64,000 nucleotides of DNA from Acetobacteraceae bacterium (lineage in GTDB: Bacteria > Pseudomonadota > Alphaproteobacteria > Acetobacterales > Acetobacteraceae): the NCBI GenBank assembly GCA_965276815.1, contig CBDIBE010000010.1, positions 623,734 through 687,733 of the forward strand, in the 5' to 3' direction. Each line of letters starts with the position of its first letter. The stretch's first letter is position 1. A model generated the notes under the pieces. That model made no database searches. It was given only the letters and a program-made list of their open reading frames with translations, and was not told the origin of the DNA. Of this stretch, positions 12,765-32,950 are shown in pieces. A program made the translations under genes and the position numbers.

Positions 12765-12968
12765 TTTTCGGCCGCTCGCCAGCGAAAGTCGGCGGATGCG
12801 CCCGGAATGACGGACCGTTCGGAAAACTTTACACCGCCGAACTCGCGGCACCCAAGTGCGTCCATAAGACATTGATGTTGCGCGTTTTAGCTTTGTGGCA
12901 CGAGAGGTGCATTGACGATTCTGTGACGCGTTTTATATTGTCACACAACGCGTGCAGGAGTGAGCCGA

Positions 12969-13601
12969 ATGAACGTCAAGACCGCATTGTTGGCGACAAT
13001 TGCAGCCGTCGGAATTTCGGGTGTTGCGAACGCCGTGCCGATTGCGGCCGGAAGCCAATTGAACATTGCTGGTTTCGATCGCGCTCAGCCCGATCTCGGA
13101 ACCACGACGCTCGATATGGCCACCGGCCTGGACTTCACCACCGGCGATGGCCCGACGCCTGGCACGCCGGGCGTCCTAAGCGCGGCGAACGGCAGCGGAA
13201 CCTTCGCCACCCTGGGTAGCTGCTCCACCTCGTGCGGGACGATCCAGGACATACTGAGCTTCTCGGGCTTTACCAGCACGGCGGGTGAGGTTGTGGCCAC
13301 CCTGCCGGGCGGCACGGTGACCCTGGACCTCAACGCCCCGTTGAGCATCACCGGGATCGCGGCCAACCCCGGCACCGGTCAGCTCGCCACGTTGCTCGTA
13401 TCTGGCACCGGCGAGTTCCATCTTGCCGGTTTCGACACCACGCCGGCCTCGTTCACGCTGACCACACAGGGCAGCTCGATCACGACGTTCTCGGCTTCGG
13501 CAGTCGGCACCACGTTGGCAGTGCCCGAGCCGATGTCGCTGGCTCTGCTGGCCAGCTCGCTCGGCGCTTTCGGCGTGGCCCGGCGCTTGGGCCGCGGCTA
13601 A
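12969..13601 (+). CDS. PEP-CTERM sorting-domain secreted protein (copy 1)
   Basis: There is an AGGAG RBS before ATG 12969 and a signal peptide MNVKTALLATIAAVGISGVANA. The body is Thr/Gly/Ser-rich. The C-terminus AVPEPMSLALLASSLGAFGVARRLGRG is VPEP, then a TM helix, then an Arg cluster. Confidence 0.8.
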   Translation: MNVKTALLATIAAVGISGVANAVPIAAGSQLNIAGFDRAQPDLGTTTLDMATGLDFTTGDGPTPGTPGVLSAANGSGTFATLGSCSTSCGTIQDILSFSGFTSTAGEVVATLPGGTVTLDLNAPLSITGIAANPGTGQLATLLVSGTGEFHLAGFDTTPASFTLTTQGSSITTFSASAVGTTLAVPEPMSLALLASSLGAFGVARRLGRG

Positions 13602-13774: not shown

Positions 13775-15259
13775 TTGATGTTTGCAGGGCGGCTACAGGC
13801 GCGGTTTTCGATTGTCGTCATGGTGCTTGCCGGTGTTGCCGGCCATGCTCAGGCGGCCGTGGTTAATCAATGGGTGCAGTTCGCGCCCAACAACACCGTG
13901 CTGCTCCGCGCTATTGAGAGCGACCCCAGCAATGGCTGCCCAGCCGCCTCGGTCGACGGCAATCCAGTCACGCTGACGCAACGCGGCACCGTCACCACCC
14001 CGGCAGAGGCGCCGCAGACCTACTATCCCGTCCTGATGTGTGAGGCCTCGCTGTCCGCTTTCGGGCATACCTCGGCCAATATCGGCGGTGTGACGCTCAA
14101 GATGCCGGTGACCACGCCGCACCGGATCCTGTTCCTCGGCGACACCGGGTGCCGGGTGACCGCATCGGTGTCCAGCACGCAGAACTGTGACGATCCGACG
14201 CAGTTCCCGCTGCAATTCCTCTCCAACTATGCGGCCAGCTTCAAGCCCGACCTGATCGTCCACGTCGGCGACTTCCTCTACCGTGAGCAGCCATGCCCGG
14301 CCGGGTTTGCCGGCTGCGCGGGCAACCCCGCCTTCGACAACTGGGATAGCTGGAACGCCGACTGGTTCGGCCCGGCGAAGAACCTGCTCGCGGCCGCGCC
14401 GATCGCGATCACGCGCGGCAACCACGAGAGCTGCAACCGCGGCGCCCATGGCTGGTTCCGCCTGCTCGACGCCCATCCCTATAACCAGGCGGCCGTCGAC
14501 TGCATCGGCCAATACGCGCCCATGGTCGGCGCCCCCGGCACGAAGACGACCTATATCGGCCAGTATGACTACACCGCGCCTTACGTGGTGAACGCCGGGC
14601 AGGTCTCGTTGCTGATGTTCGACTCCAGCGACTCCAACACCACCGCGCCGGACAACACGTCCCTGACCCAGGCGACGAACCCGACCTACCCGTCGATGAC
14701 GCTGCCGCAAATCTACGCGGCGCAGCTGAACGCCGTCCTGCCCTCGCTTGCCAGCACGAACGTGTTCTACATCACGCATAAATCCAGCTTCGACGTCCGG
14801 CCCGCCCTGATCAACGGCGCGCTCTCCGGCGGCGATGCGACGCAGCAATATGTGTTCAACGGTGTGAGCCCGAACGGCGGCGTGCCGCCGCAGATCAAGC
14901 TGCTAATCTCCGGCCACGACCATCAGTTCGAGGCGGTGAACTTCGCCAACACGAATTTCGCGCCGCAATTGACGACCGGCAACGGCGGTACTCTGCTCGA
15001 CAACAATAACGGCAACCAGCCGCAGGGCTTCTCGCCCGACACCGCGCCGGGCAACCAGGGTGCGGCATACGCCCTGCCTGGGCTCTCCGGCACGCCGACC
15101 ATCACCATCCAGTCCGACGCCGACCAGGCCGAATACGGCTTCACCGTCATGGACGCGGTGACCGGCGGCTACGTCGCCAACATCTACAACATGGCGTCCG
15201 GCAAGCTGGCGCGCTGCGTAACGCAGCTCAGCCCGCGCCAGATGATCTGCACGCAGTAG
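13775..15259 (+). CDS. Secreted calcineurin-like metallophosphoesterase
   Basis: It has a signal peptide (VMVLAGVAGHAQA). The metallophosphoesterase motifs are present in order: GDTG, GDFLYRE, GNHE, GHDHQFE. A GC hairpin sits at about 15276-15297 downstream. Confidence 0.75.
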   Translation: MMFAGRLQARFSIVVMVLAGVAGHAQAAVVNQWVQFAPNNTVLLRAIESDPSNGCPAASVDGNPVTLTQRGTVTTPAEAPQTYYPVLMCEASLSAFGHTSANIGGVTLKMPVTTPHRILFLGDTGCRVTASVSSTQNCDDPTQFPLQFLSNYAASFKPDLIVHVGDFLYREQPCPAGFAGCAGNPAFDNWDSWNADWFGPAKNLLAAAPIAITRGNHESCNRGAHGWFRLLDAHPYNQAAVDCIGQYAPMVGAPGTKTTYIGQYDYTAPYVVNAGQVSLLMFDSSDSNTTAPDNTSLTQATNPTYPSMTLPQIYAAQLNAVLPSLASTNVFYITHKSSFDVRPALINGALSGGDATQQYVFNGVSPNGGVPPQIKLLISGHDHQFEAVNFANTNFAPQLTTGNGGTLLDNNNGNQPQGFSPDTAPGNQGAAYALPGLSGTPTITIQSDADQAEYGFTVMDAVTGGYVANIYNMASGKLARCVTQLSPRQMICTQ

Positions 15260-15408
15260 CGTCTCGGATCAGAAGCTCGCCGGCCTGAGCCGGCGAGTTC
15301 CTGGTCGGCACGCGGAAAACAACTCAGTACAATTCGCTTCGCGGCGGCGCCGGTTGCGGGTAAATCCGAGACCGGCGCCTTCCGGCTGGGCGATGAGGAC
15401 TACGACCA

Positions 15409-16431
15409 ATGCTGCACGGTCACGACCACGACGGTCACCATCACCATGACCACGACGATGATGGGGATGACGTCCCTGTCAGTTCGCCGGGCTCAAGGCG
15501 GCTCCGGGTCGCGCTGCGCTTTGCTTTTGCGGGAGTGATCGTGGCCGCCGCGGTGTTCGCATCGGCCTCGGTGATGGTGGGTGCGGGGGAGGCCTCGGTG
15601 ATCACCCGCTTCGGCGACCTGTCGCGCGTGCTGACCAAGCCGGGTCTGGCCTGGAAGCTGCCGACGCCGCTGGAAAGCGTCATCCCGGTCGATCTGCGGC
15701 TGCGCACCACCTCCACCGGCCTGCAGGATGTCGGCACCAAGGACGGGCTGCGCATCCTCGTGCAGGCCTATGTCGCTTGGCAGGTGCCCGCCGACCCCGC
15801 CCATATCCGGCAGTTCGTGCGCGCCGTGCGCAACGACCCGGACGAGGCGGCGCGCCAGCTCCGCAGCCTGGTCGGGGCGGCGCTGCAGGTGACGGCCAGC
15901 AGCTTCGAGCTTGCCGACCTGGTCGACACCGACGCGGCGCGGCGCAAGCTGCCCGAATTCGAGCAGCGCTTGCTCGCGCAGATCGGCCCTTCCGCCTTGG
16001 ACGTCTACGGCGTGCAAATCCAGCAGGTCGGGATCGAGCGGCTGACCTTGCCGGACGCGACCTTGGCCGCGACGGTCGCCCGCATGCGCGCCGAGCGCGA
16101 GACCGTGGCCGCCGCTCGCACGGCGGAGGGGCTGCGCGCGGCGGCGGAGCTGCGCTCGGCGGCGGCGCGCGACTCGCGGATCACCGTGTCGAACGCGCGG
16201 ACCGAGGCGGCCGATATCGAGGCTAAATCGCGCGAACAGGCGGCGGCGATCCAGGCGCACGCCTATCAGGCCGACCCCGACCTCTACACGATGCTCCGCT
16301 CGATGGACACGCTGGGCAGCGTGGTCGGCCCCAACACGCGGTTGATCCTGCGCACCGACGCGGCGCCGTTCGACGTGCTGGTCAAGCGGCCCGGCGCGGC
16401 CCCCGATCCGACGGCGGGCGCCAGCCGTTGA
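15409..16431 (+). CDS. SPFH/band-7 domain membrane protein (HflC-like) with an N-terminal His/Asp-rich tract
   Basis: The N-terminus is MLHGHDHDGHHHHDHDDDGDD, followed by one TM helix and then an SPFH domain (VITRFGDLSRVLTKPGLAWKLP...). The stop overlaps the next gene's start (ATGA). Confidence 0.75.
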   Translation: MLHGHDHDGHHHHDHDDDGDDVPVSSPGSRRLRVALRFAFAGVIVAAAVFASASVMVGAGEASVITRFGDLSRVLTKPGLAWKLPTPLESVIPVDLRLRTTSTGLQDVGTKDGLRILVQAYVAWQVPADPAHIRQFVRAVRNDPDEAARQLRSLVGAALQVTASSFELADLVDTDAARRKLPEFEQRLLAQIGPSALDVYGVQIQQVGIERLTLPDATLAATVARMRAERETVAAARTAEGLRAAAELRSAAARDSRITVSNARTEAADIEAKSREQAAAIQAHAYQADPDLYTMLRSMDTLGSVVGPNTRLILRTDAAPFDVLVKRPGAAPDPTAGASR

Positions 16432-17504
16432 GCGCCGCGGCGCACCCGGCCGAAGGACCGATCGCGCAGTCGATCGCGACCGGGTTCAAGGTGCTGTTCG
16501 CCGCGATCGCCGTGCTGGCGGTCGCCTGGGCCGCATCGAACTGGCGGCAAGTGCCGGCCGATGCGCAGGCGGTCGTGCTGCGGTTCCGCCGGATCGTCGC
16601 GGTCAAGCAAGCGGGGCTGACCCTGTCCTGGCCACGGCCGATCGGCAGCGTGGAGCTCATACCCGGCGAACAGCGGCTGCTGACGGTGCGCACGCAGTCC
16701 ATCGCCCGCGTTGGCGGCATGACCGATGTGTTCACCGCAGCCAACGAAGCGAACTTGCCCGAGGGCAGCGCCGAATACCTGACCGGGGATGGTGGCGTGG
16801 TGCTGCTGGGCGCCACACTCAGCTACCGGGTGACCGACGGCGCCGCGTACTACCTCGCCCAGACGCATGTCGCCCCGGCCTTGCAGCGGTTGTTCGCGGC
16901 GAGCGCCGTCGACGTGCTGGCCACCCGCAAGCTGGACGACGTGATGGTGGCCGAGCCGGTGCGCGCCAACGCCGACCTCCAGCGCACCGCGGACGCCGAG
17001 GCGAGGCGGCAGGCGTTGCGGGGCGACCTGGTCGAGGCCGTCAACAAACGCCTGGCGGATCTCGCCGCGCATGGCGCGTCCCTTGGCGTCGAGGTCGCGC
17101 GGATCGATTTGGAGCCGTCGCTGCCGCCGCAAGCCAAGATCGCCTACGACCAGGTCCTCGTCGCCGCGCAGATGGCCGAGCAGGGCATCGCCGACGCGCG
17201 CACCGAGGCCACACGCACGCTGCAAGTCGCCGACCGGGAGCGCGACCGGTTGCTGGAAGCCGCCAAGGCGTCGGCGAATGAGCGGGTGGACGAGGCGCGG
17301 TCGCGCACGGCGGCGATCCTGGCGGTCCGCGCGAGCATGACGCCGACGACGCGGAGCGCCGTGCTCGATCAGGTGTATCGCGACCAGCTCGCGGTGCTGC
17401 TGCAGAAGGTTGGCCGGGTCACCGCCGTGGATCCGCGCGGCGGAGCGCAGGTGATGCTGCCGGCGACGATTCCGCTCCCCGCGGCACCGAGTTTCAATCG
17501 ATGA
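16428..17504 (+). CDS. SPFH/band-7 domain membrane protein (HflK-like partner)
   Basis: 358 aa with one TM helix and an SPFH domain (VVLRFRRIVAVKQAGLTLSWPRPIG) plus a coiled-coil C-terminus. It is translationally coupled on both sides. Confidence 0.75.
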   Translation: MSAAAHPAEGPIAQSIATGFKVLFAAIAVLAVAWAASNWRQVPADAQAVVLRFRRIVAVKQAGLTLSWPRPIGSVELIPGEQRLLTVRTQSIARVGGMTDVFTAANEANLPEGSAEYLTGDGGVVLLGATLSYRVTDGAAYYLAQTHVAPALQRLFAASAVDVLATRKLDDVMVAEPVRANADLQRTADAEARRQALRGDLVEAVNKRLADLAAHGASLGVEVARIDLEPSLPPQAKIAYDQVLVAAQMAEQGIADARTEATRTLQVADRERDRLLEAAKASANERVDEARSRTAAILAVRASMTPTTRSAVLDQVYRDQLAVLLQKVGRVTAVDPRGGAQVMLPATIPLPAAPSFNR

Positions 17505-19471
17505 GCGTCACCGTCTCTGGCTCGCCGATCTTCGTCTCGCGGCGCGCCTCGCTGCTGGAGAGCGCCGAGCGGGCGATGCTGGCGATGCGCCTGACGGTGG
17601 CGATGGTGGCGGCCGGGCTGCTGCTGCTGGCGGTGCTGTGGCAGGCGGTGGTGCCCGGGCAGCAGGCGCTGTCGGACCTCATTGCCGGGGCCGCGGCCTT
17701 GCTCGTCGCGGTTCCCGTCATCACCTCGGCCTGGCACAGCCTGCGCCATCCAAGCCTGCATGGGGTGACCGACCGGCTGATCGCGGTGGCGCTGATCGCC
17801 GCCTGGGCGAGCGGCGACCTGATGACCGCGGCGGTGCTGCCGATCATCATGATCATCGGCCACGTGCTCGAGGAGCGCAGCCTGATCGGCTCGCGCGAGG
17901 CGATCGAGGCGTTGGCCAGCCTGACCGAGACGCACACGCGACGGCTCAACCCGGACGGTTCCTCCGAGGTGGTCGCGACCGCCGATCTGCGACCCGGCGA
18001 CGTGATCGAGCTGCTCGCTGGCGCCCGAGTGCCGGCGGATGGCGTCGTGCGGGCTGGAATGGCCAGCCTGGATATGGCGTCGCTGACCGGGGAGAGCGTG
18101 CCGGTCGATGTGGCGGAGGGTGATTCGGCGCTCGCCGGCTCGATCAACCTCGACGGGCGGCTCGAGCTCGAGGTGAGCCGGATCGGCGCGGAGACGGCAC
18201 TCGGAAAGATCATTGCACTGATGCGCACGGCCGAGCGCGCCAAGCCCCCGGTGGCGCGGCTGCTCGAGCGCTATGCCGGGCATTACCTGCTGCTGGTCCT
18301 GATGATCGCGGCCGGCACCTGGTTCGCGACCAACAACACGGCGGCGACGCTGGCCGTGCTGGTCGCGTCCTGCCCTTGCGCTCTGGTGCTGGCCGCGCCG
18401 GCCACCGCGATCGCTGCCATCGCCGTCGCGGCGCGGCACGGCATCCTGATCAAGGGCGCCGCGTTCCTCGAGCAATTGGCCGAGGTGAATTCGGTTATCT
18501 TCGACAAGACCGGCACGCTCACCACCGGCGAGCTGACCTTGATCGCGTTCCGCCCCTGCAACGGCGCCGATCCGCAAGCCGCGCTGCTTCTGGCAGCGGC
18601 GCTCGGTTCGGCGAGCAACCACCCGGTGAGCCGTGCGGCGGCCCGGTTGGCGCCTGAGCCGGTGCGGCCTGGCTTGGCAGAAGTGCGCGAGGCGAGCGGC
18701 TTCGGCGTCGCCGCACTGGCCGACGGCCAGGATGCAGCGCTTGGCCGCCCGGACTTCTTCCGCAATCTCGGCGTGTCGGCGCCCCCGCCGCCGCCGCATG
18801 ACGGGCCGATCGCCGGATTGAGCCTTGGCGGCGTGTTCCTGGGCTGGCTGTTGTTTGCCGACCGGCCGCGCCGGGAGGCCTCCGGCGCACTGGCCGAGCT
18901 GCGCGCGATGGGGCTGGAGCGGCAGGTCCTGCTGACCGGCGACCGCGAGGCGGTCGCGCATCGGATTGGCGCCGAGCTGGGCATTGCCGACATCAGCGCC
19001 GAGGCGCTGCCGGAACAGAAGATGGACCGGGTGCTGGGAGAGATCCGCTCCGGCTACCGGCCGCTGGTGGTCGGCGACGGCATCAACGACTCGCTGGCGC
19101 TCAAAGTGGGCGCGGTCGGGGTCGCGATGGGCGCGCGGGCGACCGACGTGGCCTTGGCATCGGCCGATCTGGTGCTGATGACCAGTGATCTGCGGCGGCT
19201 GGCGACCGCGCTGCGCCTCAGCCGGCGTTGCCGGCGGACCATTCACGTCAATGTCGCGATCGGGCTCGGCTGGACGCTGCTCCTCATCGCGCTGGCGGCG
19301 AGCGGGACGCTGGGGGCGGAGGGCGCGATCATCGCGGCGTTGCTGCATAATCTGAGCACCTTCCTCGGTCTCGGCAACGCTGGCCGGCTGCTGCTGTTCG
19401 ATGAGCCGCATGCGCCACCGGCTGACATGGAAACGTCGCACACGGCCGCTATCGCCTCTGCTATCGGCTGA
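17501..19471 (+). CDS. P1B-type heavy-metal translocating P-type ATPase lacking an N-terminal metal-binding domain
   Basis: 656 aa with TM CPC motif VASCPCALVLAAP, phosphorylation site DKTGTLTTG and hinge VVGDGINDSLAL. There is no HMA (GMxCxxC) domain. TM8 carries HNLST instead of the CopA-type MxxSS. Confidence 0.8.
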   Translation: MSVTVSGSPIFVSRRASLLESAERAMLAMRLTVAMVAAGLLLLAVLWQAVVPGQQALSDLIAGAAALLVAVPVITSAWHSLRHPSLHGVTDRLIAVALIAAWASGDLMTAAVLPIIMIIGHVLEERSLIGSREAIEALASLTETHTRRLNPDGSSEVVATADLRPGDVIELLAGARVPADGVVRAGMASLDMASLTGESVPVDVAEGDSALAGSINLDGRLELEVSRIGAETALGKIIALMRTAERAKPPVARLLERYAGHYLLLVLMIAAGTWFATNNTAATLAVLVASCPCALVLAAPATAIAAIAVAARHGILIKGAAFLEQLAEVNSVIFDKTGTLTTGELTLIAFRPCNGADPQAALLLAAALGSASNHPVSRAAARLAPEPVRPGLAEVREASGFGVAALADGQDAALGRPDFFRNLGVSAPPPPPHDGPIAGLSLGGVFLGWLLFADRPRREASGALAELRAMGLERQVLLTGDREAVAHRIGAELGIADISAEALPEQKMDRVLGEIRSGYRPLVVGDGINDSLALKVGAVGVAMGARATDVALASADLVLMTSDLRRLATALRLSRRCRRTIHVNVAIGLGWTLLLIALAASGTLGAEGAIIAALLHNLSTFLGLGNAGRLLLFDEPHAPPADMETSHTAAIASAIG

Positions 19472-19522
19472 GTGACGTAACGTTCCTGGTCCATCGTGCC
19501 GGGTTTTTGGAAGGGTATTTTT

Positions 19523-20197
19523 ATGAAGTCGAGCCATTGGGTCTTCGGGACGGCGCTTGCCACCGGTTTGGCCGCTTGGAGCGCGCAAGCGGGCGCCGCG
19601 GTGATGTTGACGACGAGCCTCTCGGCTTTTGAGGCCGCAGCCGGGCCCGCCCCGGTGATCAACACCCAGACCACCGGCCTGTTTGATCCGTTCGCGCTTG
19701 AGCTGCCGACGACGACTGCGATCCCGCTCGCCGACGGGTTCACGATCGGGCTCTCCTCGGCGGCGCAGGTGACGCAGCCGCAAGATGGCTATCCTTACCT
19801 GCTCAGCGACGGGTTCTCCGGCGATCTATTCATTCCGCAGGATGCGACGGGCAACCAGATCTCGACCGAGACGCTCTTCACCAGCGGCGCCGACGCGCTC
19901 GGCTTCGAGGTGGTGCCGTTCTCGAGCGACATCGGCGGGCCTTATAACATCACGGTGACGCTTGGCACGGGACAGAGCACGACGATCAGCCTGCCCGGCG
20001 CGGATTTCAACAACGGCGAGACCACGCCGGCCTTCTTCGGCTATGTCGGCGGTCCGGAGACCTCGCTGACCATCACCGCCACCGACCCGAACGGGCTTGC
20101 CTTCGGCAATTTCTACGAAGTGCCGGAGCCGGCCTCGCTGGTGCTGGTCCTGACCGGTGTCGGCCTGGTCGCCGGCCTGCGGCGCAGGAACGCCTGA
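19523..20197 (+). CDS. PEP-CTERM sorting-domain secreted protein (copy 2)
   Basis: It has a signal peptide MKSSHWVFGTALATGLAAWSAQAGA. The C-terminus is EVPEPASLVLVLTGVGLVAGLRRRNA. Confidence 0.8.
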   Translation: MKSSHWVFGTALATGLAAWSAQAGAAVMLTTSLSAFEAAAGPAPVINTQTTGLFDPFALELPTTTAIPLADGFTIGLSSAAQVTQPQDGYPYLLSDGFSGDLFIPQDATGNQISTETLFTSGADALGFEVVPFSSDIGGPYNITVTLGTGQSTTISLPGADFNNGETTPAFFGYVGGPETSLTITATDPNGLAFGNFYEVPEPASLVLVLTGVGLVAGLRRRNA

Positions 20198-20199: not shown

Positions 20200-20559
20200 G
20201 CCTCCGCCCGCACTCTGGCCGCGCTCGCGGCGCTCGCGGCTACGCCCGCCTATGCGGATGGCGGGCGAGACGAGGCGCCGCTTCGCCTGGCTGGGGTTGT
20301 TGTGGCCGGCCCGGTGCGGCAGGCGATTTTTGTCACGCCGGATGGGGCAATGTTGCTTGTGGACGAGGGTGGCCGGCTGGGCAGGTTCACCGTGCGCGCC
20401 ATCCGCCGCGGCGAGGTGGAGCTGGCGGGAACCGGGGGCAGCACCGTGCTCTCGCCTTCGCCGGACGCGATCTTGCGCGATGAGTTGCGGCCGCCTCCGG
20501 CCAACGTGCCGCTCATCGATCCTTTCCGCCGCGAGGCGGAGACGGAGAACGATCAGTAG
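20200..20559 (+). CDS. Small hypothetical secreted protein (start uncertain)
   Basis: The open frame begins right after the PEP-CTERM stop and has a signal-like N-terminus (LIASARTLAALAALAATPAYADG). The first ATG is at 20302. There is no recognisable domain. Confidence 0.3.
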   Translation, partial: ASARTLAALAALAATPAYADGGRDEAPLRLAGVVVAGPVRQAIFVTPDGAMLLVDEGGRLGRFTVRAIRRGEVELAGTGGSTVLSPSPDAILRDELRPPPANVPLIDPFRREAETENDQ

Positions 20560-20658
20560 CTTTGCCGGAACCTCACGCCGATCTAACCACGGCCTCACGG
20601 ACCCTGCGTTAACCGTTTGCTAAGCTGAGTCGCTTACTCATGGTAGTTGCAAGCGCCC

Positions 20659-22533
20659 ATGTCGGTCAAAATCAACGAAAACCCCGTTGTCCCGTTTTCT
20701 GCACAGCCGATTGCGCTGTCGACGCGGTTTGCGGTGACCGGTTCGGGAAGCGACCCTGCCTATCTCGTGGTCGATGGCCTCGATCGCGACGAGTACACCG
20801 TGAATGCCACGGGGGCGACGGGTGAGCTGACTGGAGATGGGAGGAGCTTGGGCTTCACCTCGCTCGGCGGCGACGCGCGCGGGGCCGGCATCGTCTTCAC
20901 CTACCAAGTTTCGACCGGACGCTACTACAGCGCGAATTTCGGCTACCTCGACCAGCTCGCCTACACGCCATCGACGAGTGTGGGCGATGTGACCGACCTG
21001 TGCTTCTGGGGCACCAACAACCTGTCTCTCGCGAACGAGTATGGCGGCAATGCCGAGTCGATGATGCAGGTCGATGCGTCTGGCTATCTCGGTTCGGTCA
21101 CGGTCGCGACGGAGCCGGGCTATAGCGCGACCGTTCCCGCGCAAGCCACCCCGGGCTCGATTGCCGCGGTTGCCGAGACCTTTGTTGGCCAGAGCTGGAA
21201 CATTAATGGCTGTTGGGTTTTGACCAGTGTGATTTCCGCCGAGGCCGGGGCGTCGCTTCCCGTCCAGAGCACGGCTGACATCGCTGGGCAGGCCAATGGC
21301 GAGTGGTTCGTCGCCTATGATGGCCCGGCCGGCGAAACCGGGAATTGGCAGTCGCTGGTCACGACCGGCGAGATGGTCGGGTTCGAGACGTCGAGCGGAA
21401 CCGGGCACATCACGACAATCGTTTCCGGTTCCGGCAGTTCGGCGATGGTGGTGGACAACGCCGCGTTCGAGAGCGCCTACGGCCAGGTGGTCAACTCGGC
21501 CAATGACGGCTCGCCGGATGACATTACGATCTCAGCGCCGCATGCCGCTTCGCAGGAATTCTCCGGCGTCAACGCCGACACGGTGGTGATCTACGAGCTC
21601 GACACGCCCGTCGTGACGACGAACAGCACCGGCCTCACGCTGACGCCGGACAGCGCGGACAGTCTCGGCTCGCTGTTCTCGGCGGCGGATCCCGAAGGCA
21701 AGACCGTCACCACCTATCAGTTGTACGACACGGACCCCGGCGGCGCGCTCGTCGTCAGCGGGACGGACTTCAACGCGAATTCGACCTCGACGGCCGTGAC
21801 GGTGAGTTCGCTCGCGCAGGTGAGCCTACAGGCTGGGGCCGCGGACAATACCGGCTCGATTGATGTCCGGGCATCCAACGGCTCTTACTGGGGAGACTGG
21901 ACGTCGCTCGGCGTCACCGTCGCAGGATCGGCGCCGGCGTCCTCCCCTGGGACGCCCGCGCCCAGCACGGCAGACAATTTCAATTGGACCGATATCGTGA
22001 CCGACTCATCCGGCAGCGGTGCGGGCGAGGCGTATTCCGGCTCGGTTGCCGGCATCCAATCGGAATATACTTGGTCTGGAGCGGATAGCGCCGCCATCGC
22101 GGCCCAGGTCGCAAATGTCTACCTCGTGGGCGGCCCGGGCGGGGACGCGCTCGAGGCTTATGCGGGCAGCAACGTGCTGGATGGCGGCACCGGGTCGAAC
22201 TTCCTGATCGGCGCGACAGGCGCTGACGGCGGAACCGACACCTTCTTTGTCGATGGCCGCGGCGACGCCCCGTTTTGGGACAGCTTGGTCAATTTCCACG
22301 AGGGCGATGCGGTGACGTTGTGGGGCTTCGCGCCGGGAAGCACGATGGCCTGGGCACCCAATGCGGGCGCACCGGGCTATCAGGGTGCGACGCTTGACGT
22401 CTCGCTGGCGAACGCCACGACCGGGTCGGTCACTTTCGCCGGGATCAGCTTGTCACAGGCGCAAGCCAATTTCGTCACCAGTTCCGGCACCTCCGGCGGA
22501 GTGCCTTACCTTGAGGTCCAATTCACTGCGTGA
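20659..22533 (+). CDS. Large Thr/Ser/Gly-rich extracellular protein with C-terminal RTX-like (GGxGxD) calcium-binding repeats; candidate type I secretion substrate
   Basis: About 624 aa with no N-terminal signal peptide. The C-terminal region is GGPGGDALEAYAGSNVLDGGTGSNFLIGATGADGGTDTF. Confidence 0.65.
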   Translation: MSVKINENPVVPFSAQPIALSTRFAVTGSGSDPAYLVVDGLDRDEYTVNATGATGELTGDGRSLGFTSLGGDARGAGIVFTYQVSTGRYYSANFGYLDQLAYTPSTSVGDVTDLCFWGTNNLSLANEYGGNAESMMQVDASGYLGSVTVATEPGYSATVPAQATPGSIAAVAETFVGQSWNINGCWVLTSVISAEAGASLPVQSTADIAGQANGEWFVAYDGPAGETGNWQSLVTTGEMVGFETSSGTGHITTIVSGSGSSAMVVDNAAFESAYGQVVNSANDGSPDDITISAPHAASQEFSGVNADTVVIYELDTPVVTTNSTGLTLTPDSADSLGSLFSAADPEGKTVTTYQLYDTDPGGALVVSGTDFNANSTSTAVTVSSLAQVSLQAGAADNTGSIDVRASNGSYWGDWTSLGVTVAGSAPASSPGTPAPSTADNFNWTDIVTDSSGSGAGEAYSGSVAGIQSEYTWSGADSAAIAAQVANVYLVGGPGGDALEAYAGSNVLDGGTGSNFLIGATGADGGTDTFFVDGRGDAPFWDSLVNFHEGDAVTLWGFAPGSTMAWAPNAGAPGYQGATLDVSLANATTGSVTFAGISLSQAQANFVTSSGTSGGVPYLEVQFTA

Positions 22534-22571: not shown

Positions 22572-22690
22572 TCACATCTTCTCTTTTAAGCCCGCCTTCA
22601 GCAGCCACCAATTCACCGGGAAGGCGGTCAGGAAACCGCAGATCATGGCGAGCTCATCATGAACCAGAACAGCCAGCTCGGGATCACCCC
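22572..22690 (-). pseudogene. C-terminal remnant of a DUF4396-like small membrane protein
   Basis: The frame ends ...DPELAVLVHDELAMICGFLTAFPVNWWLLKAGLKEKM*, resembling the DUF4396 C-terminus (PVNxWLI). There is no room for the rest of the gene because cueR ends at 22684. Confidence 0.3.
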
Positions 22691-23070
22691 GCCAACTCCT
22701 CGATGATCGGGCAATCCGGCCGCTCATCGCCGCTGCAGGAATCGGCGAGGTGGCGGAGCGTCCGGCACATGGCTTGGATCTGCTCCGCCTTGGCCTCGAG
22801 CGCGGCGACATGCGCCAAAGTCAGCCGCTTCACGTCGGCGCTGGCCCGGCGGCGGTCGCGCCACAGCGCCAACAGCTCGCGCATCTCGTCCATGGAGAAG
22901 CCGAGATCGCGCGCCCGGCGGATGAACCGCAGCGTGTGGATGTCCGCCTCGCCGAAGCGGCGATAGCCGGCGCCGCTTCGCTCGGCGGCCGCGAGCAGGC
23001 CGACGCTTTCGTAGTAGCGGATCATCTTGGCGGAAACGCCGCCGGCCTGCGCGGCCTGGCCGATATTCAT
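22684..23070 (-). CDS. cueR: MerR-family Cu(I)-responsive transcriptional regulator (CueR/HmrR type)
   Basis: It has the MerR HTH (MNIGQAAQAGGVSAKMIRYYESVGLL) and the C-terminal metal-binding loop CSGDERPDC. It overlaps the copA stop. Confidence 0.85.
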   Translation of the reverse strand: MNIGQAAQAGGVSAKMIRYYESVGLLAAAERSGAGYRRFGEADIHTLRFIRRARDLGFSMDEMRELLALWRDRRRASADVKRLTLAHVAALEAKAEQIQAMCRTLRHLADSCSGDERPDCPIIEELAG

Positions 23071-25229
23071 GGACGCCAGCTCCGCAGCAGCAGCGCGCTG
23101 CCGACCACGCTCACGCTCGAGAACGCCATCGCGGCCCCGGCGACAACAGGGCTCAGCAGGCCGAACGCGGCCAGCGGAATGCCAACCAAATTGTAGGCGA
23201 ACGCCCAGAACAAGCCTTGCCGGATGCGCCCGTAGGTGCGGCTGGAAATGTCGAGCGCCGCCGGAACCAGCGCCGGGTCGGCGCGCATCAGGGTGATGCC
23301 GGCAGCGGCCTCGGCGACGCCGGTGCCATTGGCCACTGCGATCCCGAGATCGGCTGCGGCCAGCGATGCCGCGTCGTTGACGCCATCGCCGACCATCGCC
23401 ACCGCACCCCGCGACCGCAACCCGGCGATGACGGCCGCCTTGTCCGCGGGCAGCGCCTCGGCGTGGACGTCCGTGATGCCGACGCTGCGCGCCGCCGCCT
23501 CCGCCGCACCCCGGTTGTCCCCAGTCAGCAGCACCACATCCATCCCACGGCCCCGAAGCCGGGCGACGGTGTCAGCTGCGCCGGCCAGCGGGGCGTCGCC
23601 GAAGCCGAGCAGGCCCAGCAACCGCCCGTCCGCGGCGAGGTAGGAAACGGTGCGCCCATCGCGCCCGAGCGCCGCCGCATGTTCGCTCAGCTCGGCCACG
23701 TCGATCGCTTGTTCGCGCATCAGCCGGGCGCTGCCGAGGAGGAGCGTTCTTGCGTCCACACTGCCTTCGATCCCCCGGCCGGGCAGCGCACGCACGCCGA
23801 CAGCTTGCGGCACGTCCGACCCGGCGCGAGCGGTGACCGCCCGGGCGAGCGGATGCTCGCTGCCCATTTGAAGCGCCGCGGCCAGGCGCAGCACGGTCTC
23901 GGTGTCGGAGCCCGTTGCCGCCTGTAGCGCCAAGAGTTGCGGGTGGCCTTCGGTCAGGGTGCCGGTCTTGTCGAAGACGACGATCCGGATTGCGCGCGAA
24001 CGCTCGAGGGCAGCCGGGTCACGGATGAGGATGCCGTGCCGGGCGGCGACGCCGGTGCCGACCATGATGGCGGCCGGCGTGGCCAGCCCCAAAGCGCAGG
24101 GGCAGGCGATCACCAGGACGGCGACGGCGTTGACCGCGGCCGGCTCGATCCCCGCGCCGGCGAGCAACCAACCGAGGAAGGTCACCACCGCGACCGCCAC
24201 CACCACGGGCACGAATACCGCGCTGACCCGGTCGACCAGGCGCTGCACCGGGGGTTTGGCCGCCTGCGCGTCCTCGACCAGCCGGACCATGCGCGCGAGC
24301 TGGCTCTCCGCCCCGGTCGCCGTAACTTCGGCGACGAGCAGCGCCTCGCCGTTGAGCGCGCCGCCGATCACGCGGCTGCCCGGCGGCTTCGGGACGGGCA
24401 GACTCTCGCCGGTGAGCAGGCTTTCATCGGAGCTGCCGTTGCCTTCGCGCACGATGGCGTCGGCGGCGATGCGCTCGCCGGGCCGGATCACCAGGAGGTC
24501 GCCCGCACGCAGCGCCGTCACGTCGACCTCGCGTTCGGCGCCTTCGCGGCGGATGCGGGCGCGCTCGGGCCGCAGGCGCTCGAGCGCGCGGATTGCCGAG
24601 CCCGCTTGAAACCGGGCGCGCGCTTCCAGCCATTTGCCGAGCCGGACCAGCGCCACCACCGCGGCCGAGGCCTCGAAATAGAGCGCGCCGCCGTGCCCCG
24701 AGGCGAGCTGCCACAGGCTTAGCCCGAAGGCGGCAGAAGTCCCGAGGGCGACCAGCGTATCCATATCGCCCGACCCGGCCAGCAGCGCCTTCCAGGCCCC
24801 GCGATAGAACCGCGCGCCAAAGACGAACTGCACGATCGCCGCCAGCCCGAATTGCGCCACGCCCGGCAGGGTCAAATCGACGCCAAATGGCATCAGCAGC
24901 ATTGGGAGGAGCAGCGGCGCCGCGAAAGCGAGCGCCAGGGCCGCCATAATACCATCGCGTCGCCCCGTCCGGACCGGCGGGGCGGTTAGCGAACTCGCCT
25001 CGTATCCCGCGCGCCGCACGGCTTCGACCAATTGCTCTGGCCGCACCCCCGCCTCAGCGGCGATATGTGCTCGTTCGGTCGCCAGGTTCACCTCGGCTGA
25101 GACCACCCCAGGCACGCCCAGCAACGCCCGCTCGACCCGGCGCACGCACGCCGCGCAACTCATGCCGCCAATCCGCAAGTTGCTAGAACCGGCCGCGCCG
25201 GCCTGTCGATTAATGATGCCCTGATCCAT
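23067..25229 (-). CDS. copA: Copper-translocating P1B-1 ATPase
   Basis: One N-terminal HMA domain (GMSCAACVRRVE), CPCALGLATP, DKTGTLT, GDGVNDA and a C-terminal MxxSS-type TM. Confidence 0.9.
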   Translation of the reverse strand: MDQGIINRQAGAAGSSNLRIGGMSCAACVRRVERALLGVPGVVSAEVNLATERAHIAAEAGVRPEQLVEAVRRAGYEASSLTAPPVRTGRRDGIMAALALAFAAPLLLPMLLMPFGVDLTLPGVAQFGLAAIVQFVFGARFYRGAWKALLAGSGDMDTLVALGTSAAFGLSLWQLASGHGGALYFEASAAVVALVRLGKWLEARARFQAGSAIRALERLRPERARIRREGAEREVDVTALRAGDLLVIRPGERIAADAIVREGNGSSDESLLTGESLPVPKPPGSRVIGGALNGEALLVAEVTATGAESQLARMVRLVEDAQAAKPPVQRLVDRVSAVFVPVVVAVAVVTFLGWLLAGAGIEPAAVNAVAVLVIACPCALGLATPAAIMVGTGVAARHGILIRDPAALERSRAIRIVVFDKTGTLTEGHPQLLALQAATGSDTETVLRLAAALQMGSEHPLARAVTARAGSDVPQAVGVRALPGRGIEGSVDARTLLLGSARLMREQAIDVAELSEHAAALGRDGRTVSYLAADGRLLGLLGFGDAPLAGAADTVARLRGRGMDVVLLTGDNRGAAEAAARSVGITDVHAEALPADKAAVIAGLRSRGAVAMVGDGVNDAASLAAADLGIAVANGTGVAEAAAGITLMRADPALVPAALDISSRTYGRIRQGLFWAFAYNLVGIPLAAFGLLSPVVAGAAMAFSSVSVVGSALLLRSWRP

Positions 25230-25256
25230 TTGACCTCTCCGGCGACGGATATGGGG

Positions 25257-25290: not shown

Positions 25291-25337
25291 GCCATTGTGG
25301 GAGGGTGCAGAACCGCGCCAAGAACCCGGAGAGTCCT

Positions 25338-31051: not shown

Positions 31052-32950
31052 TTGGACACACTGCAGCAATTCGCCGGGCCAACGACCCCGATTGGCGCCG
31101 GCGTCGACCTCCGGCGTGGCATCCGGCTGCTCCGGCTGCTGGCATTCCTGTTCGGCGGCGGGGCGCTTGCACTGGTTGTGCTGCTTGCCTTGTTCCCGAC
31201 TTTGGACATGGCGGTCGAGGCGCGGTCGAGCGGGCTGGCCGGCATTACGCTCGCCGGACTTCTGCTGGCGCTCTCGGGCATAATGGCGGCGCTGCCGATC
31301 GCGACGTGCCGCCTGGCCTGCGCGGAAGAGCGCCGGCGGCAGCGTCTGCCGCGTCTGCTCCGCTTCCGCCCGGTCGACCCGGCGCGGCGGCTCTCCTGGA
31401 TGGCACGGCGTCCGCAGGGCATCATCATCCCGGTGATCTGCGTGGGCGCCGGCATTGCGGTCTGGCTGCTGCGTCCGCAGATGCCCGGCGCTTTGGCGCC
31501 GCAAGCGATGATCCTCGGCGCCGGGGCCATCGTGCTCGGCTTCCCGCTCCTGGTCGCGCAGAAGCTGATGGCCGCCGTTCCGCGTCACGAATTGGTGGAG
31601 GCCGACGCGCTTTCGGCCCTGCTGCGAGTGCCGGTGATCATCGTGCCGCTGGCCGGCGTGGTGGACATCGGGGCCGCGGAGGGGTTCGGCTACGCCCGTC
31701 CGGTCATGGCCGTGCTCGCCGTGTTTATCGGCGTTGTCGCGGCCGAGTTGGGCTTGCGCGCACTCGGCAATTGGTTCCTGCCGCCGCCAACGCCCGCCGA
31801 GGCGAGGGCTTCCGTCACCAGCCTGGCGGCGCGTCTGCTGCATGACGGGTCGGTCGGCGAGGGCCTGGCCGCACCGATCCGGGCGCAGCTCGGCATCGAC
31901 TTCTCGCGGAGCTGGGCGCTGCGCTACGCGCGTTCGGCCGCGCTGCCGGTCGGGCTGGGGTTGGCGCTGCTCGCCTGGGGTCTGACCGGAGCGGCGCTGA
32001 TCCCGCTGGACCAGCGCGGCGTGTACGAGCGGTTCGGCAAGCCGGTCGCGGTCTGGCAGCCCGGCGCGCATCTTGGCCTGCCCTGGCCGCTCGGCCGGGT
32101 CCGTATGGTCGAGCTTGGGGTCGTGCACACAATGACCCTTGGGGGCACCGAGCCGCCGGACACCGTGTCGCGCGCCGAGGATCCGCCGCCGGACTCGGCG
32201 AACCGGCTTTGGGACAAGGTACATCCGGCCGAGACTTCCTACATCATCGCGTCGGTCGAGACCTCGGGCGCGCAAAGCTTTCAGAGTGTCGATGCCGACC
32301 TCAAGGTGCTGTATCGCACGGGCCTGGACGACGCATCGGCGCTGCGGGCCGCTTATGGGGTGACATCGGCGGACCAGCTCGTGCGCAGCGAGACGGGGCG
32401 GCTGCTCGCCCGGGTGTTCGCCGGGCGGCTGTTGAATGACGTGATCGGCACCGACCGCGAGACGCTGGCCGAAAATTTGCGCCGGGACCTGCAGGCCGAG
32501 CTGGACCGGCGCCACAGCGGCATCGAGGTCATGCAGGTGGTGATCGAGGCGATCCATCCGCCGCTCGCCGCCGCGCAGGCCTATCACAACGTGCAGGCGG
32601 CCGAGATCGTGGCGAACACGGCCATTTCGACGGAACGCGGGCGCGCCGTGGCCAGCGCGGCGATGGCGCGCCAGACGGCGACCGGGATTACCGACGCGGC
32701 GAAGGGCGCGGCTTCGTCCACGGTTGCCGACGCGAACGTCCTGCTGCGCAACTTCACCGCTGACCAGCAGGCCGCAGCGGTGGGCGGCGAGGCGTTCCTG
32801 CTGGAGCGCTATTTTGCCAATTTGAGCATGGCGCTGCTGAAATCGCCGCTGGTCATCGTCGACCATCGCCTGCAGGGTCCGACGGCGCCGGTGATCGACC
32901 TGCGCTCGTTCGGCGCGCCGGGCGTTACCCGGTCAGGCGACGAGGACTAG
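31052..32950 (+). CDS. Polytopic membrane domain fused to a C-terminal SPFH/band-7 (HflK-like) domain
   Basis: 632 aa. The first ~300 aa have about 8 predicted TM helices. The remainder is an SPFH domain (QRGVYERFGKPVAVWQPGAHLGLPWPLGRVRMVEL) with a coiled-coil tail. Confidence 0.7.
   Translation: MDTLQQFAGPTTPIGAGVDLRRGIRLLRLLAFLFGGGALALVVLLALFPTLDMAVEARSSGLAGITLAGLLLALSGIMAALPIATCRLACAEERRRQRLPRLLRFRPVDPARRLSWMARRPQGIIIPVICVGAGIAVWLLRPQMPGALAPQAMILGAGAIVLGFPLLVAQKLMAAVPRHELVEADALSALLRVPVIIVPLAGVVDIGAAEGFGYARPVMAVLAVFIGVVAAELGLRALGNWFLPPPTPAEARASVTSLAARLLHDGSVGEGLAAPIRAQLGIDFSRSWALRYARSAALPVGLGLALLAWGLTGAALIPLDQRGVYERFGKPVAVWQPGAHLGLPWPLGRVRMVELGVVHTMTLGGTEPPDTVSRAEDPPPDSANRLWDKVHPAETSYIIASVETSGAQSFQSVDADLKVLYRTGLDDASALRAAYGVTSADQLVRSETGRLLARVFAGRLLNDVIGTDRETLAENLRRDLQAELDRRHSGIEVMQVVIEAIHPPLAAAQAYHNVQAAEIVANTAISTERGRAVASAAMARQTATGITDAAKGAASSTVADANVLLRNFTADQQAAAVGGEAFLLERYFANLSMALLKSPLVIVDHRLQGPTAPVIDLRSFGAPGVTRSGDED

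Follow-up and report, generated by a model that had tools for sequence, protein, structure and literature searches.

The hmtA cluster of Pseudomonas aeruginosa (PA2439-PA2434) encodes three SPFH proteins (PaFlo5-7), PA2436, the P1B-ATPase HmtA and PA2434. It is listed in transcriptome and proteome papers on zinc limitation and is bound by Zur in EMSA (PMC4542158, PMC8531726, PMC11761036, PMC13086221). In a znuA mutant, expression of the cluster rose 5.6- to 14-fold (PMC4542158), zinc depletion raised its protein levels (PMC11761036) and Zur shifted the PA2439 promoter (PMC8531726); in one study hmtA mRNA was low and showed no response to zinc (PMC8531726; PMC10393844). E. coli cells over-expressing HmtA accumulated Cu/Zn and were hypersensitive, and the protein was published as a Cu/Zn importer (PMC10393844, PMC11923076). 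The import evidence comes from HmtA over-expressed alone in E. coli. Triple deletion of paFlo5-7 in PA14 caused only mild phenotypes, with metals outside the assay set (PMC13086221), and no paper in the literature on the hmtA cluster addresses a link between the SPFH proteins and the pump.

A precedent for the combination of scaffold, His motif and P1B pump is the mycobacterial PacL1-CtpC "effluxosome", in which the gene of the P1B-ATPase is accompanied by that of a small membrane scaffold. The scaffold bears a short metal-binding motif of Asp and His (DLHDHDH) and stabilises the CtpC pump in membrane foci, the motif being needed only at high zinc (PMC9374683). PacL proteins, however, belong to DUF1490, contain Glu/Ala repeats and are found only in Actinobacteria, whereas the proteins considered here are SPFH proteins of proteobacteria; the PacL1 motif is C-terminal, while the tail of the HflC-like protein described below (SPFH1) is N-terminal. 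Moreover, PacL1-CtpC is a zinc-induced efflux system whose foci arise without flotillin. In SPFH-NfeD operons (QmcA-YbbJ, FloA-NfeD) an SPFH protein is likewise encoded with a dedicated membrane partner, but here the partner is a transporter, and none of the inspected loci showed an NfeD gene.

Gene order and conservation of the unit

The window, a 64,000-nt stretch of DNA from an Acetobacteraceae bacterium, contains the following features:

13775..15259, +, metallophosphoesterase with Sec signal (Metallophos; Pfam PF00149, E 3e-10; signal-peptide-like N-terminus)
15305..15333, +, promoter-like site TCGGCA-17-TACAAT 5' of SPFH1 (consensus scan, 9/12 matches; weak)
15409..16431, +, SPFH1, HflC-like SPFH protein, orthologue of P. 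aeruginosa PA2438 (Band_7; 340 aa)
15415..15471, +, His/Asp-rich N-terminal tail of SPFH1, residues 3-21, predicted cytoplasmic (sequence)
15523..15579, +, single transmembrane helix of SPFH1 (hydropathy peak at residues 39-57; AF2 helix 27-53)
16428..17504, +, SPFH2, HflK-like SPFH protein, orthologue of PA2437, TTG start (Band_7; 358 aa)
17501..19471, +, HmtA-type P1B-ATPase without HMA domain (Pfam, NCBIfam; 656 aa)
17858-17881, 18086-18097 and 18371-18379, +, ATPase motifs GHVLEERS, TGES and CPC (sequence)
18503-18517, 19073-19093 and 19346-19360, +, ATPase motifs DKTGT, GDGINDS and HNLST (sequence)
19485..19503, +, terminator-like hairpin followed by a T-run, 3' of the ATPase stop (consensus scan; weak)
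31052..32950, +, long SPFH protein, displaced, orthologue of PA2439 (60% identity to the in-operon gene of locus L001)

The three open reading frames of an earlier note on this DNA were confirmed on the + strand (340, 358 and 656 aa), and so was the SPFH identity of the first two products (Band_7, E 5e-31 and 8e-10; Pfam). The note had placed ATGA overlaps at both junctions; this holds for SPFH2/ATPase (17501-17504), but the 4-nt stop/start overlap between SPFH1 and SPFH2 (16428-16431) reads TTGA, so that SPFH2 starts with TTG, not ATG. In the terminator consensus scan, the number of hairpins in the region did not exceed that in shuffled sequences.

Scanning genomes with an SPFH1 profile resulted in at least 574 confirmed matches, spanning Alpha-, Beta- and Gammaproteobacteria, and 80 loci from species-level genomes were fetched. 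Based on tblastn of these loci, the order long polytopic SPFH, SPFH1, SPFH2, P1B-ATPase was found in every locus with enough DNA. Three loci reached from the ATPase instead, in the P. aeruginosa group, in P. protegens and in the P. cichorii group, had the same order. Of the junctions, 74 of 83 between SPFH1 and SPFH2 and 56 of 82 between SPFH2 and the ATPase showed stop/start overlaps, and the identities of the four genes co-varied over 74 loci (Spearman 0.80-0.86). The four genes alone, flanked by IS elements, are also carried by two plasmids, a conjugative one of B. ubonensis and one of Klebsiella. The synteny is therefore strongly conserved and not fortuitous: the idea that the SPFH genes lie beside the ATPase by chance alone, for which nothing in favour was found, is refuted by an order kept in three proteobacterial classes and on plasmids, and can be practically dismissed. 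The unit, described earlier as three genes, actually has four, a polytopic SPFH protein of about 600 aa always being encoded first, and the three genes of the window are the core of this conserved, horizontally mobile unit.

In the window, the long SPFH gene lies 11.6 kb downstream of the other three, which appear to form a transcription unit of their own. Its product consists of a 6-TM N-domain, TM7, an SPFH domain (Band_7, E 4e-16) and a coiled coil (AF2 model, pLDDT 80.5). The long gene is likewise unlinked from the unit in the relative L092, while a copy 78% identical to that of the window (P0333) remains in the operon in L087.

Judged by sequence, PA2439-PA2435 of P. aeruginosa (PaFlo5-7 and HmtA) are the orthologues of the unit, and the gene order of locus L084 equals PA2442...PA2432. 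The unit is thus the known zinc-starvation-induced hmtA cluster, and not a new find; the earlier statement that such a module was not established has to be withdrawn in view of the zinc-limitation papers (PMC4542158, PMC8531726, PMC11761036, PMC13086221). Gene families and order are alike in the two systems, the CPC, LLHNLST and GDGINDSLALK motifs of the ATPases are identical, and both include an HflC-like subunit with a His/Asp tail. The window differs in the displacement of its long SPFH gene, in lacking PA2436-like and DUF4946 genes, in an ATPase without the His-rich N-terminus of HmtA, and in having Metallophos as upstream gene.

In 8 Pseudomonas loci a Zur-box-like site, GTTATANNGTWAC, occurred once, immediately before the first gene, with only one more match among all 95 loci; no Zur-like operator was found upstream of the Acetobacteraceae-type loci, window included. 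In P. sprentiae, genes for a TonB-dependent receptor (TBDR) and a Fur-family regulator lie next to the unit, together with zigA, COG0523 and znuABC-like genes. Zinc-acquisition genes surround the unit in Paraburkholderia as well as in the P. cichorii group. Its neighbours in the window are efflux genes: a CueR-like (MerR) regulator with an HMA-CopA, an RND pump, and a CDF protein (25539-26474, -) beginning with MPHDHAHHHDHGPGGHHH, as His-rich as had been claimed. In about 33 related loci, among them the window, Metallophos is the immediately preceding gene in the same orientation, and it is a frequent operon head in Acetobacteraceae-type relatives.

Relationships of the SPFH proteins and the ATPase

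All three SPFH proteins resemble E. coli HflK/HflC, SPFH1 being similar to HflC, and SPFH2 and the long protein to HflK, in sequence and predicted fold. The top PDB sequence matches were E. coli HflC for SPFH1 (3.8e-19) and HflK for SPFH2 (4e-6). According to its AF2 model (pLDDT 82), SPFH1 folds like HflC, the nearest chains being those of HflK/C (7vhq, 7wi3; E 1e-17), and the model of the long protein was also nearest to HflK/HflC chains of the FtsH-HflK/C complex. A transmembrane helix, an SPFH domain and a long coiled coil, with a predicted N-in topology and periplasmic body, are common to both systems. However, scores were under the family cut-offs (100.5 vs. 134.4 bits for SPFH1 with TIGR01932 HflC; 57.9 vs. 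159.4 bits for SPFH2 with TIGR01933 HflK), the set comprises three paralogues (K-C-K order) and not two, one with an extra 6-TM domain and one with a His tail, and the genomic partner is a P1B-ATPase rather than hfq-hflX or FtsH.

The His/Asp tract reported earlier on SPFH1 was confirmed as HGHDHDGHHHHDHDDDGDD, and it is a conserved feature, beyond chance: among the 87 SPFH1 proteins of related loci (three duplicate records included), 73 had at least 5 His per 20-residue window, nearly always N-terminal, before the transmembrane helix. Lysine and arginine were more abundant on the N-terminal than on the C-terminal flank of this helix (2.95 vs. 1.15, n=88); the predicted topology puts the tail in the cytoplasm and the SPFH domains in the periplasm. 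In about 13 of the 87 loci no subunit carries a His tract, so that the tail cannot be essential to the core function. Since, in addition, the ATPases of Pseudomonas and Marinomonas bear a His-rich N-terminus of their own, the earlier idea of the tail as a simple substitute for a metal-binding domain does not hold.

The third protein matched E1-E2_ATPase and Hydrolase, with no HMA domain found by Pfam, which agrees with the earlier description of a pump without a metal-binding domain and not of CopA type. Its family signature (CPC, HNxST, GHxLEERS, GDGINDSLAL, no HMA) is kept in all loci checked, with CPC in TM4 (residues 291-293) and H-N-x-S/G-T in TM6 (HNLST, residues 616-620). By this signature CopA-, ZntA- and CoaT-type pumps were ruled out; the motifs place the protein in the HmtA type, and it was 63% identical over 594 aa to P0149, the HmtA orthologue of the P. 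aeruginosa group. The best solved relatives were P1B-2 (ZntA; 4umv, 8.6e-73) and P1B-4 (CoaT/CzcP; 7qbz, 6.4e-72). The window ATPase shares CPC with ZntA, but has Trp at Lys693 in TM5 and His at Asp714 in TM6; it lacks an HMA domain as P1B-4 does and its HNLST aligns with HEGST of sCoaT, but TM4 carries CPC, not SPC, and Asn replaces the Glu of HEGxT.

Possible roles of the unit

With moderate confidence, we propose that an HflK/C-like ring holds the pump and that its His tails bind metal at the cytoplasmic face, in a system for metal scarcity and not for detoxifying efflux. By analogy with HflK/C-FtsH, the three paralogues would form a ring or cage in the inner membrane, with its SPFH and coiled-coil parts on the periplasmic side, enclosing the pump as a client, and a ring of cytoplasmic His/Asp tails would bind Zn/Cu (possibly Ni/Co) near its cytoplasmic mouth. 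As a working assumption, Cu/Zn would be transported inward, as published for HmtA, with the tails as first acceptors; the main alternative on direction is outward pumping that loads exported enzymes. Import by a P1B-ATPase is contrary to the usual mechanism of the family.

The earlier note had instead seen a Zn/Co/Ni-type efflux (resistance) ATPase, to which the His-rich SPFH protein hands over cytoplasmic metal, replacing the missing cytosolic metal-binding domain. P1B-ATPases are usually exporters, for which cytoplasmic His-rich N-termini are typical, and the predicted location of the tail, the efflux genes of the window (HMA-CopA with MerR regulator, His-rich CDF, RND pump) and the exporters ZntA and sCoaT as nearest solved relatives are consistent with this role, as is the help given by the PacL1 His motif to CtpC efflux at high zinc (PMC9374683). 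We nevertheless regard it as rather unlikely, given that zinc depletion, and not zinc excess, induces the orthologous cluster, whose promoter is bound by Zur (PMC4542158, PMC8531726, PMC11761036), that HmtA over-expressers accumulate Cu/Zn and are hypersensitive (PMC10393844, PMC11923076), that zinc-acquisition neighbourhoods occur in Paraburkholderia (Zur-type) and in the P. cichorii group, and that Pseudomonas ATPases have their own His-rich N-terminus besides the SPFH tail. Export for metallation, in which Zn or another metal is pumped outward under a periplasmic SPFH dome and loads Sec-exported apo-enzymes first, is an unlikely reading as well. The clients would be the operon-head phosphoesterases or, in Pseudomonas, the small periplasmic PA2436 and DUF4946 (PA2434) proteins. 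Two unrelated phosphoesterase families with Sec signals, Metallophos (about 33 loci) and an AcpA/PLC-type (6 loci), occupy one position, that of the immediately preceding gene in the same orientation, and in Pseudomonas the products of the additional genes carry signal peptides. A periplasmic location is predicted for the SPFH domains, and outward transport is the normal P1B direction and sensible under Zur control too. Loading of this kind is known for ZnT5-7 (alkaline phosphatase), CopA2/CcoI (cbb3 oxidase) and TerC proteins (exoenzymes). The support is, however, purely genomic: the phosphoesterase link is mostly limited to Acetobacteraceae and relatives, where shared ancestry may explain it, Burkholderiaceae and plasmid copies are without such a gene, the Metallophos protein had no PDB sequence match, and outward transport contradicts the published accumulation phenotype of HmtA.

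The SPFH trio could also be an alternative HflK/C set acting on FtsH or on general membrane organisation, with the ATPase co-regulated and not a client, which we consider very improbable. The trio is most similar to HflK or HflC and is named "protease modulator HflK/HflC" by PGAP; FtsH is a zinc protease, so that a paralogue set for zinc starvation is conceivable. Small biofilm and virulence effects in the paFlo5-7 mutant (PMC13086221) point in the same direction. Against this stand the scores of all three proteins under the HflK/HflC equivalog cut-offs, the strict adjacency, junction overlaps and correlated divergence with the ATPase in all loci, and plasmid copies that carry the four genes without ftsH.

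A scaffold or metal-antenna role of the SPFH proteins is the most reasonable reading. Counting against its scarcity component, the efflux genes neighbouring the unit in the window fit resistance better. Yet, since the orthologues are bound by Zur, respond to zinc depletion by induction and lie beside znuABC/zigA-type genes, the unit most likely serves metal supply or allocation under scarcity, rather than detoxification.

Architecture, conservation and identity of the gene unit

The two SPFH genes and the ATPase gene of the window, together with the predicted signals that bracket them, are arranged as follows:

15305-15333, promoter-like site, 5' bracket of the three genes (consensus match only)
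15409-16431 (+), SPFH1, ORF of 340 aa, Pfam Band_7/SPFH, protein start MLHGHDHDGHHHHDHDDDGDD
16428-17504 (+), SPFH2, ORF of 358 aa, Pfam Band_7/SPFH
17501-19471 (+), P1B-ATPase, ORF of 656 aa, Pfam E1-E2_ATPase and HAD hydrolase domains, no HMA domain
19485-19503, hairpin followed by a T-run, 3' bracket of the three genes (consensus match only)

The junction between SPFH2 and the ATPase gene (17501-17504) reads ATGA, as the earlier note had claimed for both junctions; at the SPFH1-SPFH2 junction (16428-16431) the claimed 4-nt overlap was present, but it reads TTGA, with TTG as the start codon. Rfam had no match anywhere in the window, and hence no riboswitch.

A profile of SPFH1 homologues, run against one genome per species, had at least 574 confirmed matches; the 80 loci retrieved for comparison belong to Acetobacteraceae, Xanthobacteraceae, Stellaceae, Paraburkholderia/Burkholderia, Pseudomonas, Marinomonas and Steroidobacteraceae. 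In every locus with enough DNA, tblastn with the proteins of the window recovered the order LongBand7 (a Band_7 protein of about 600 aa), SPFH1, SPFH2 and P1B-ATPase, and searches that started from the ATPase found the identical arrangement in three spot checks (P. aeruginosa group, P. protegens and P. cichorii group). Stop/start overlaps occurred at 74 of 83 SPFH1-SPFH2 junctions and at 56 of 82 SPFH2-ATPase junctions, and sequence identity to the reference was correlated among the four genes over 74 loci (Spearman 0.80-0.86). The four genes were also carried by a conjugative Klebsiella aerogenes plasmid and, flanked by IS elements, by a conjugative B. ubonensis plasmid. Taken together, these results indicate that the adjacency is not fortuitous and that the four genes constitute one inherited, transferable unit; the synteny in relatives on which the earlier note had staked its reading was thus maintained. 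Two MAG contigs, labelled Comamonadaceae (L037) and Janthinobacterium lividum (L039, close in likeness to L035 and L043), contained units headed by a Metallophos gene that look Acetobacteraceae-type, and may have been mis-binned.

In the window itself, LongBand7 is encoded by an intact orthologue at 31052-32950 (+), 11.6 kb downstream of the ATPase gene and unlinked to SPFH1, with an RND/MFP operon on one side and a CoA-transferase gene on the other; it shares 60% identity with the gene that locus L001 keeps in the operon. A relative with a 93% identical SPFH1 showed the same split over two contigs (L086 and L092, the gene lying at 3556-5412 of the latter), while in the next relative (L087, SPFH1 86% identical) LongBand7, whose product P0333 is 78% identical to that of the window, was still in the operon, pointing to a recent, lineage-specific displacement. 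The upstream regions of SPFH1 and of the displaced gene had no motif in common.

The locus from the P. aeruginosa group (L084) begins with GCV_T, two further genes and three Band_7 genes (665, 343 and 346 aa), and continues with genes for a 144-aa protein, a P1B-ATPase of 660 aa, DUF4946, an 89-aa protein and a LysR regulator. We take this order to match PA2442...PA2439-PA2434...PA2432 of the PAO1 map. The ATPases of the window and of L084 shared 63% identity over 594 residues, and both contain CPCALV, LLHNLST and GDGINDSLALK. The annotations of Pederick et al. agree with L084: PA2439 is of the HflK family, PA2438 is HflC, PA2437 is of the HflC family and PA2435 is HmtA (PMC4542158). By orthology to PA2435 and linkage to the SPFH trio, the unit of the window is of the HmtA type, with the PA2439 orthologue present and unlinked. 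The finding is real and conserved, yet only partly new, since the locus is the hmtA/PaFlo5-7 cluster; what is new is the strict four-gene linkage over three proteobacterial classes and plasmids, together with the conserved His tail, the ATPase signature and the phosphoesterase association described below.

Class of the ATPase

All P1B hallmarks were present in the ATPase (DKTGT, TGES, CPx in TM4, HP in the N-domain and the GDGxND hinge), which scored 492 bits with TIGR01525 against a cut-off of 346. The CPC motif occupies residues 291-293 and HNLST residues 616-620, and the family shares the signature xxCPCALV, H-N-[LVFA]-[SGA]-T, GH[VAI]LEERS and GDGINDSLAL. When aligned with solved pumps, HNLST in TM6 corresponded to HEGST of the P1B-4 pump sCoaT, its His to Asp714 of ZntA, and a Trp in TM5 stood at the position of ZntA Lys693.

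Known subfamilies were compared on their defining features. P1B-1 pumps (CopA/FixI-type, Cu+) have one or more HMA domains, YN in TM5, MxxSS in TM6 and a TIGR01511 score above cut-off; the ATPase has no HMA domain, scored 342.8 against a cut-off of 397 and carries HNLST in TM6. P1B-2 pumps (ZntA-type) combine CPC with a Lys in TM5 and an Asp in TM6 (K693 and D714 of ZntA); CPC is present here, but Trp and His replace the two residues, and the ZntA equivalog models scored far under their cut-offs. P1B-4 pumps (CoaT/CzcP-type) have SPC in TM4, HEGxT in TM6 and no HMA domain; the ATPase likewise has no HMA domain and a motif alignable to HEGST, but it has CPC in TM4 and, in all the loci checked, Asn where HEGxT has Glu. 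The motif alignment thus places the ATPase outside the CopA/FixI, ZntA and CoaT types. The earlier note had named a FixI/CopA2-type pump as the identity that would overturn its proposal, and both the equivalog scores and the alignment rule that identity out.

Nature and topology of the SPFH proteins

SPFH1 is HflC-like and SPFH2 HflK-like. The best PDB sequence match of SPFH1 was E. coli HflC (3.8e-19), and the best fold match of its AF2 model (pLDDT 82) was to the HflK/C chains of the FtsH complex (E 1e-17); HflK/C chains were the best fold matches of the modelled unit proteins in general. Like HflK and HflC, the proteins combine an N-terminal TM anchor, an SPFH/Band_7 domain and a long coiled-coil helix (70-90 residues in the AF2 models). 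In the model of LongBand7, six TM helices modelled with confidence precede a linker and a seventh TM helix; then come an SPFH domain, whose best match was HflK, and a helix of about 90 residues. All equivalog scores nevertheless lay under the NCBIfam cut-offs (134.4 bits for HflC, TIGR01932; 159.4 bits for HflK, TIGR01933), with 100.5 bits for SPFH1, 57.9 for SPFH2 and 61.3 for LongBand7, and the trio of the P. aeruginosa group likewise remained below them. Gene order differs as well: the housekeeping genes form an hflK-hflC pair, located after hfq-hflX in Beta- and Gammaproteobacteria, whereas the unit reads K-like, C-like, K-like and P1B-ATPase in all loci, and the canonical hflK-hflC operon of P. 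aeruginosa is a separate one (PMC13086221). The three SPFH proteins are HflK/HflC paralogues and not the housekeeping pair. In RefSeq plasmid records (L088, L089 and L091) the paralogues carry the PGAP label 'protease modulator HflK/HflC' despite their sub-cut-off scores, which is probably a systematic over-annotation. NfeD was absent from the called genes and Pfam lists of the loci inspected, and the SPFH-NfeD pairing was not found there.

Lys and Arg flanking the TM helix of SPFH1 were more frequent on the N-side (2.95 vs 1.15, n=88), and mostly seven TM helices were predicted in LongBand7. From this charge bias and these counts, the His tail of SPFH1 is predicted to be cytoplasmic and the SPFH bodies periplasmic, as in HflK/C. 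The tail was found in 73 of 87 SPFH1 proteins; it was missing from about 13, mainly of Rhodopila, Acidisoma and Acidisphaera types. The ATPases of Pseudomonas and Marinomonas have a His-rich N-terminus too.

A CDF-like domain in the 6-TM N-terminal part of LongBand7 is possible, and would be new. CDF proteins have a characteristic transmembrane fold, carry an HD/HD-type site in TM2 and TM5, and match the Cation_efflux profile. No CDF fold occurred among the best 50 Foldseek matches (all 40 with E <= 0.001 were SPFH proteins), comparison with the CDF protein of the window gave an hhalign probability of 0.2, no Pfam Cation_efflux match was obtained for LongBand7, and its N-domain helices contained no conserved His/Asp pair.

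Regulation, neighbourhood and proposed function

In eight Pseudomonas loci, the palindrome-like GTTATANNGTWAC occurred exactly once, with a TTTCAC -35-like box on one side and the first SPFH gene on the other; it was matched just once more among all 95 loci.

Positions of GTTATANNGTWAC in the Pseudomonas loci
L065: 1262-1274
L066: 6711-6723
L074: 6782-6794
L080: 6851-6863
L082: 6876-6888
L093/L094: 2884-2896
L095: 2933-2945

Its counterpart in the P. aeruginosa group is degenerate (TTGTTATAAAGTTTC). By its sequence the motif resembles a Zur box, in agreement with the published EMSA of Zur on the PA2439 promoter (PMC8531726), and is a candidate Zur operator. The Zur-box consensus, itself gamma-proteobacterial, gave three weak matches upstream of the first gene, none of them in Acetobacteraceae-type loci; the window and its Acetobacteraceae relatives had no recognisable Zur-like site upstream, and the stretches ahead of the Metallophos gene were conserved only in promoter-like -35/-10 elements. 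In Paraburkholderia sprentiae the unit adjoins genes for a TonB-dependent receptor, TonB-ExbBD, a Fur-family regulator, zigA, a second COG0523 protein, a znuABC-like transporter, DUF2946 and PCuAC, and loci of the P. cichorii group have a cobW/COG0523 gene and DUF1826 at a distance of 5 kb downstream (L095 14386-15594). On the P. sprentiae chromid (NZ_CP017563), the motif GTTA[GC]GTATGCGAAT (15-of-17 identical) was found twice, next to the TonB-dependent receptor gene of the Zur-type island and ahead of the long SPFH gene (L090 about 5560 and L089 about 3790). In P. protegens an operon of bufferin type (BufA1, MbnB-like, HvfC_N) comes immediately after the ATPase gene (L093/L094 9024-10965).

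About half of the loci have a gene for a Sec-signal phosphoesterase directly upstream on the same strand, either Metallophos (PF00149; about 33 loci, among them that of the window, 13775-15259, +), for which the PDB sequence search returned no match, or an AcpA/PLC-type enzyme (PF04185) in six loci (L027 4957-6924, L048, L036, L033, L059 and L040), all of them among those without the SPFH1 His tail; Pseudomonas loci have two small signal-peptide proteins instead. Genes for cardiolipin-synthase-like (PLDc) proteins and cyclopropane-fatty-acid synthase were recurrent near the unit. PEP-CTERM proteins flank the operon, and one follows the ATPase in eight loci (the window, L004, L012, L025, L043, L045, L086 and L087). 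An ORF of about 95 aa ending in ...RREAETE(N/S/T)DQ, downstream in the window and in L086, matches the C-terminus of a 189-aa protein located after the ATPase in L001. In the window these flanking ORFs lie at 12960-13601, 19496-20197 and 20278-20559, and the 628-aa ORF at 20647-22533 had no Pfam match. The neighbours of the unit in the window are efflux genes (22684-30904, - strand), among them the CDF gene whose product begins as the earlier note had stated:

22684-23070 (-), MerR-family regulator, overlapping the next gene
23067-25229 (-), CopA-type ATPase with HMA
25539-26474 (-), ZitB-like CDF, His-rich N-terminus MPHDHAHHHDHGPGGHHH
26510-29656 (-), RND pump
29804-30904 (-), membrane-fusion protein of the RND pump

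In P. aeruginosa, mutation of znuA raises the hmtA cluster 5.6- to 14-fold, and the Zur site of the cluster is weak (PMC4542158); zinc depletion raises its proteins (PMC11761036). A review passage presents HmtA, on over-expression phenotypes, as an atypical Cu/Zn importer and asks for confirmation (PMC10393844); HmtA has also served as the copper-import control in E. coli (PMC11923076). PA2436-PA2439 are seldom mentioned in the literature searched; the 2026 study that named the trio PaFlo5-7 described a patchy, HGT-like distribution and only mild effects when all three were deleted, and mentions HmtA and metals nowhere (PMC13086221). The cluster is thus known, but no paper found addresses the link between scaffold and pump. 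The closest working analogue of the unit is mycobacterial PacL1-CtpC, in which a P1B pump owes its stability to a scaffold bearing the motif DLHDHDH (PMC9374683), although that system is unrelated in sequence and has an efflux role. DUF1490, which marks PacL/CtpC members, was not found, Band_7 being the only Pfam domain in the scaffold proteins, and the likeness is functional only.

The most likely reading, to which we give slightly better than even confidence for its parts taken jointly, is that the SPFH paralogues would form an HflK/C-like ring holding the pump, that the cytoplasmic His tails would bind metal beside it, and that ring, tails and pump would act within a metal-scarcity response. 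Linkage, co-inheritance, fold, conservation of the tail and the operator-like motif in Pseudomonas come directly from the analysis, and the complex, metal binding by the tail, the topology and the transport direction are inferred. The earlier note had taken the ATPase for an efflux pump; efflux genes are its neighbours in the window, the orthologous cluster rises under zinc depletion, and we consider this reading rather unlikely. A comparably low probability is given to outward pumping that would load exported enzymes under a dome, a reading in which direction is again reversed relative to the reported import by HmtA and for which the upstream Sec-signal phosphoesterases would be potential recipients. 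That the trio acts on FtsH or on the membrane in general seems improbable, although the proteins resemble HflK and HflC most: the pump gene accompanies the trio in all loci. Chance adjacency of the SPFH genes and the ATPase is ruled out by the synteny, and its probability is negligible.

Beyond the ring-and-tail reading, a dedicated SPFH cage for a transporter may be tentatively proposed, as a doubtful but specific extension. The three HflK/C paralogues, one with a degenerate CDF-like 6-TM domain and one with a ring of cytoplasmic His tails, would form a periplasm-facing dome over the HmtA-type pump, enclosing a confined space where scarce Zn/Cu might be trapped for uptake or passed on to Sec-exported enzymes, e.g. 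the co-encoded phosphoesterases. If this were true, it would represent a bacterial SPFH client class other than FtsH, and the native behaviour of HmtA may differ from the importer phenotype published for the pump expressed alone.

The analysis corrects the widespread automatic label 'protease modulator HflK/HflC', and the unit offers a compact, strictly linked scaffold-plus-pump system in culturable Pseudomonas and Paraburkholderia; P. aeruginosa mutants of the scaffold half and of the pump half already exist, separately. It bears on the roles of bacterial SPFH proteins beyond HflK/C-FtsH, on metal acquisition or release by P1B pumps without a metal-binding domain, and on whether HmtA is truly an inward-pumping P1B-ATPase.
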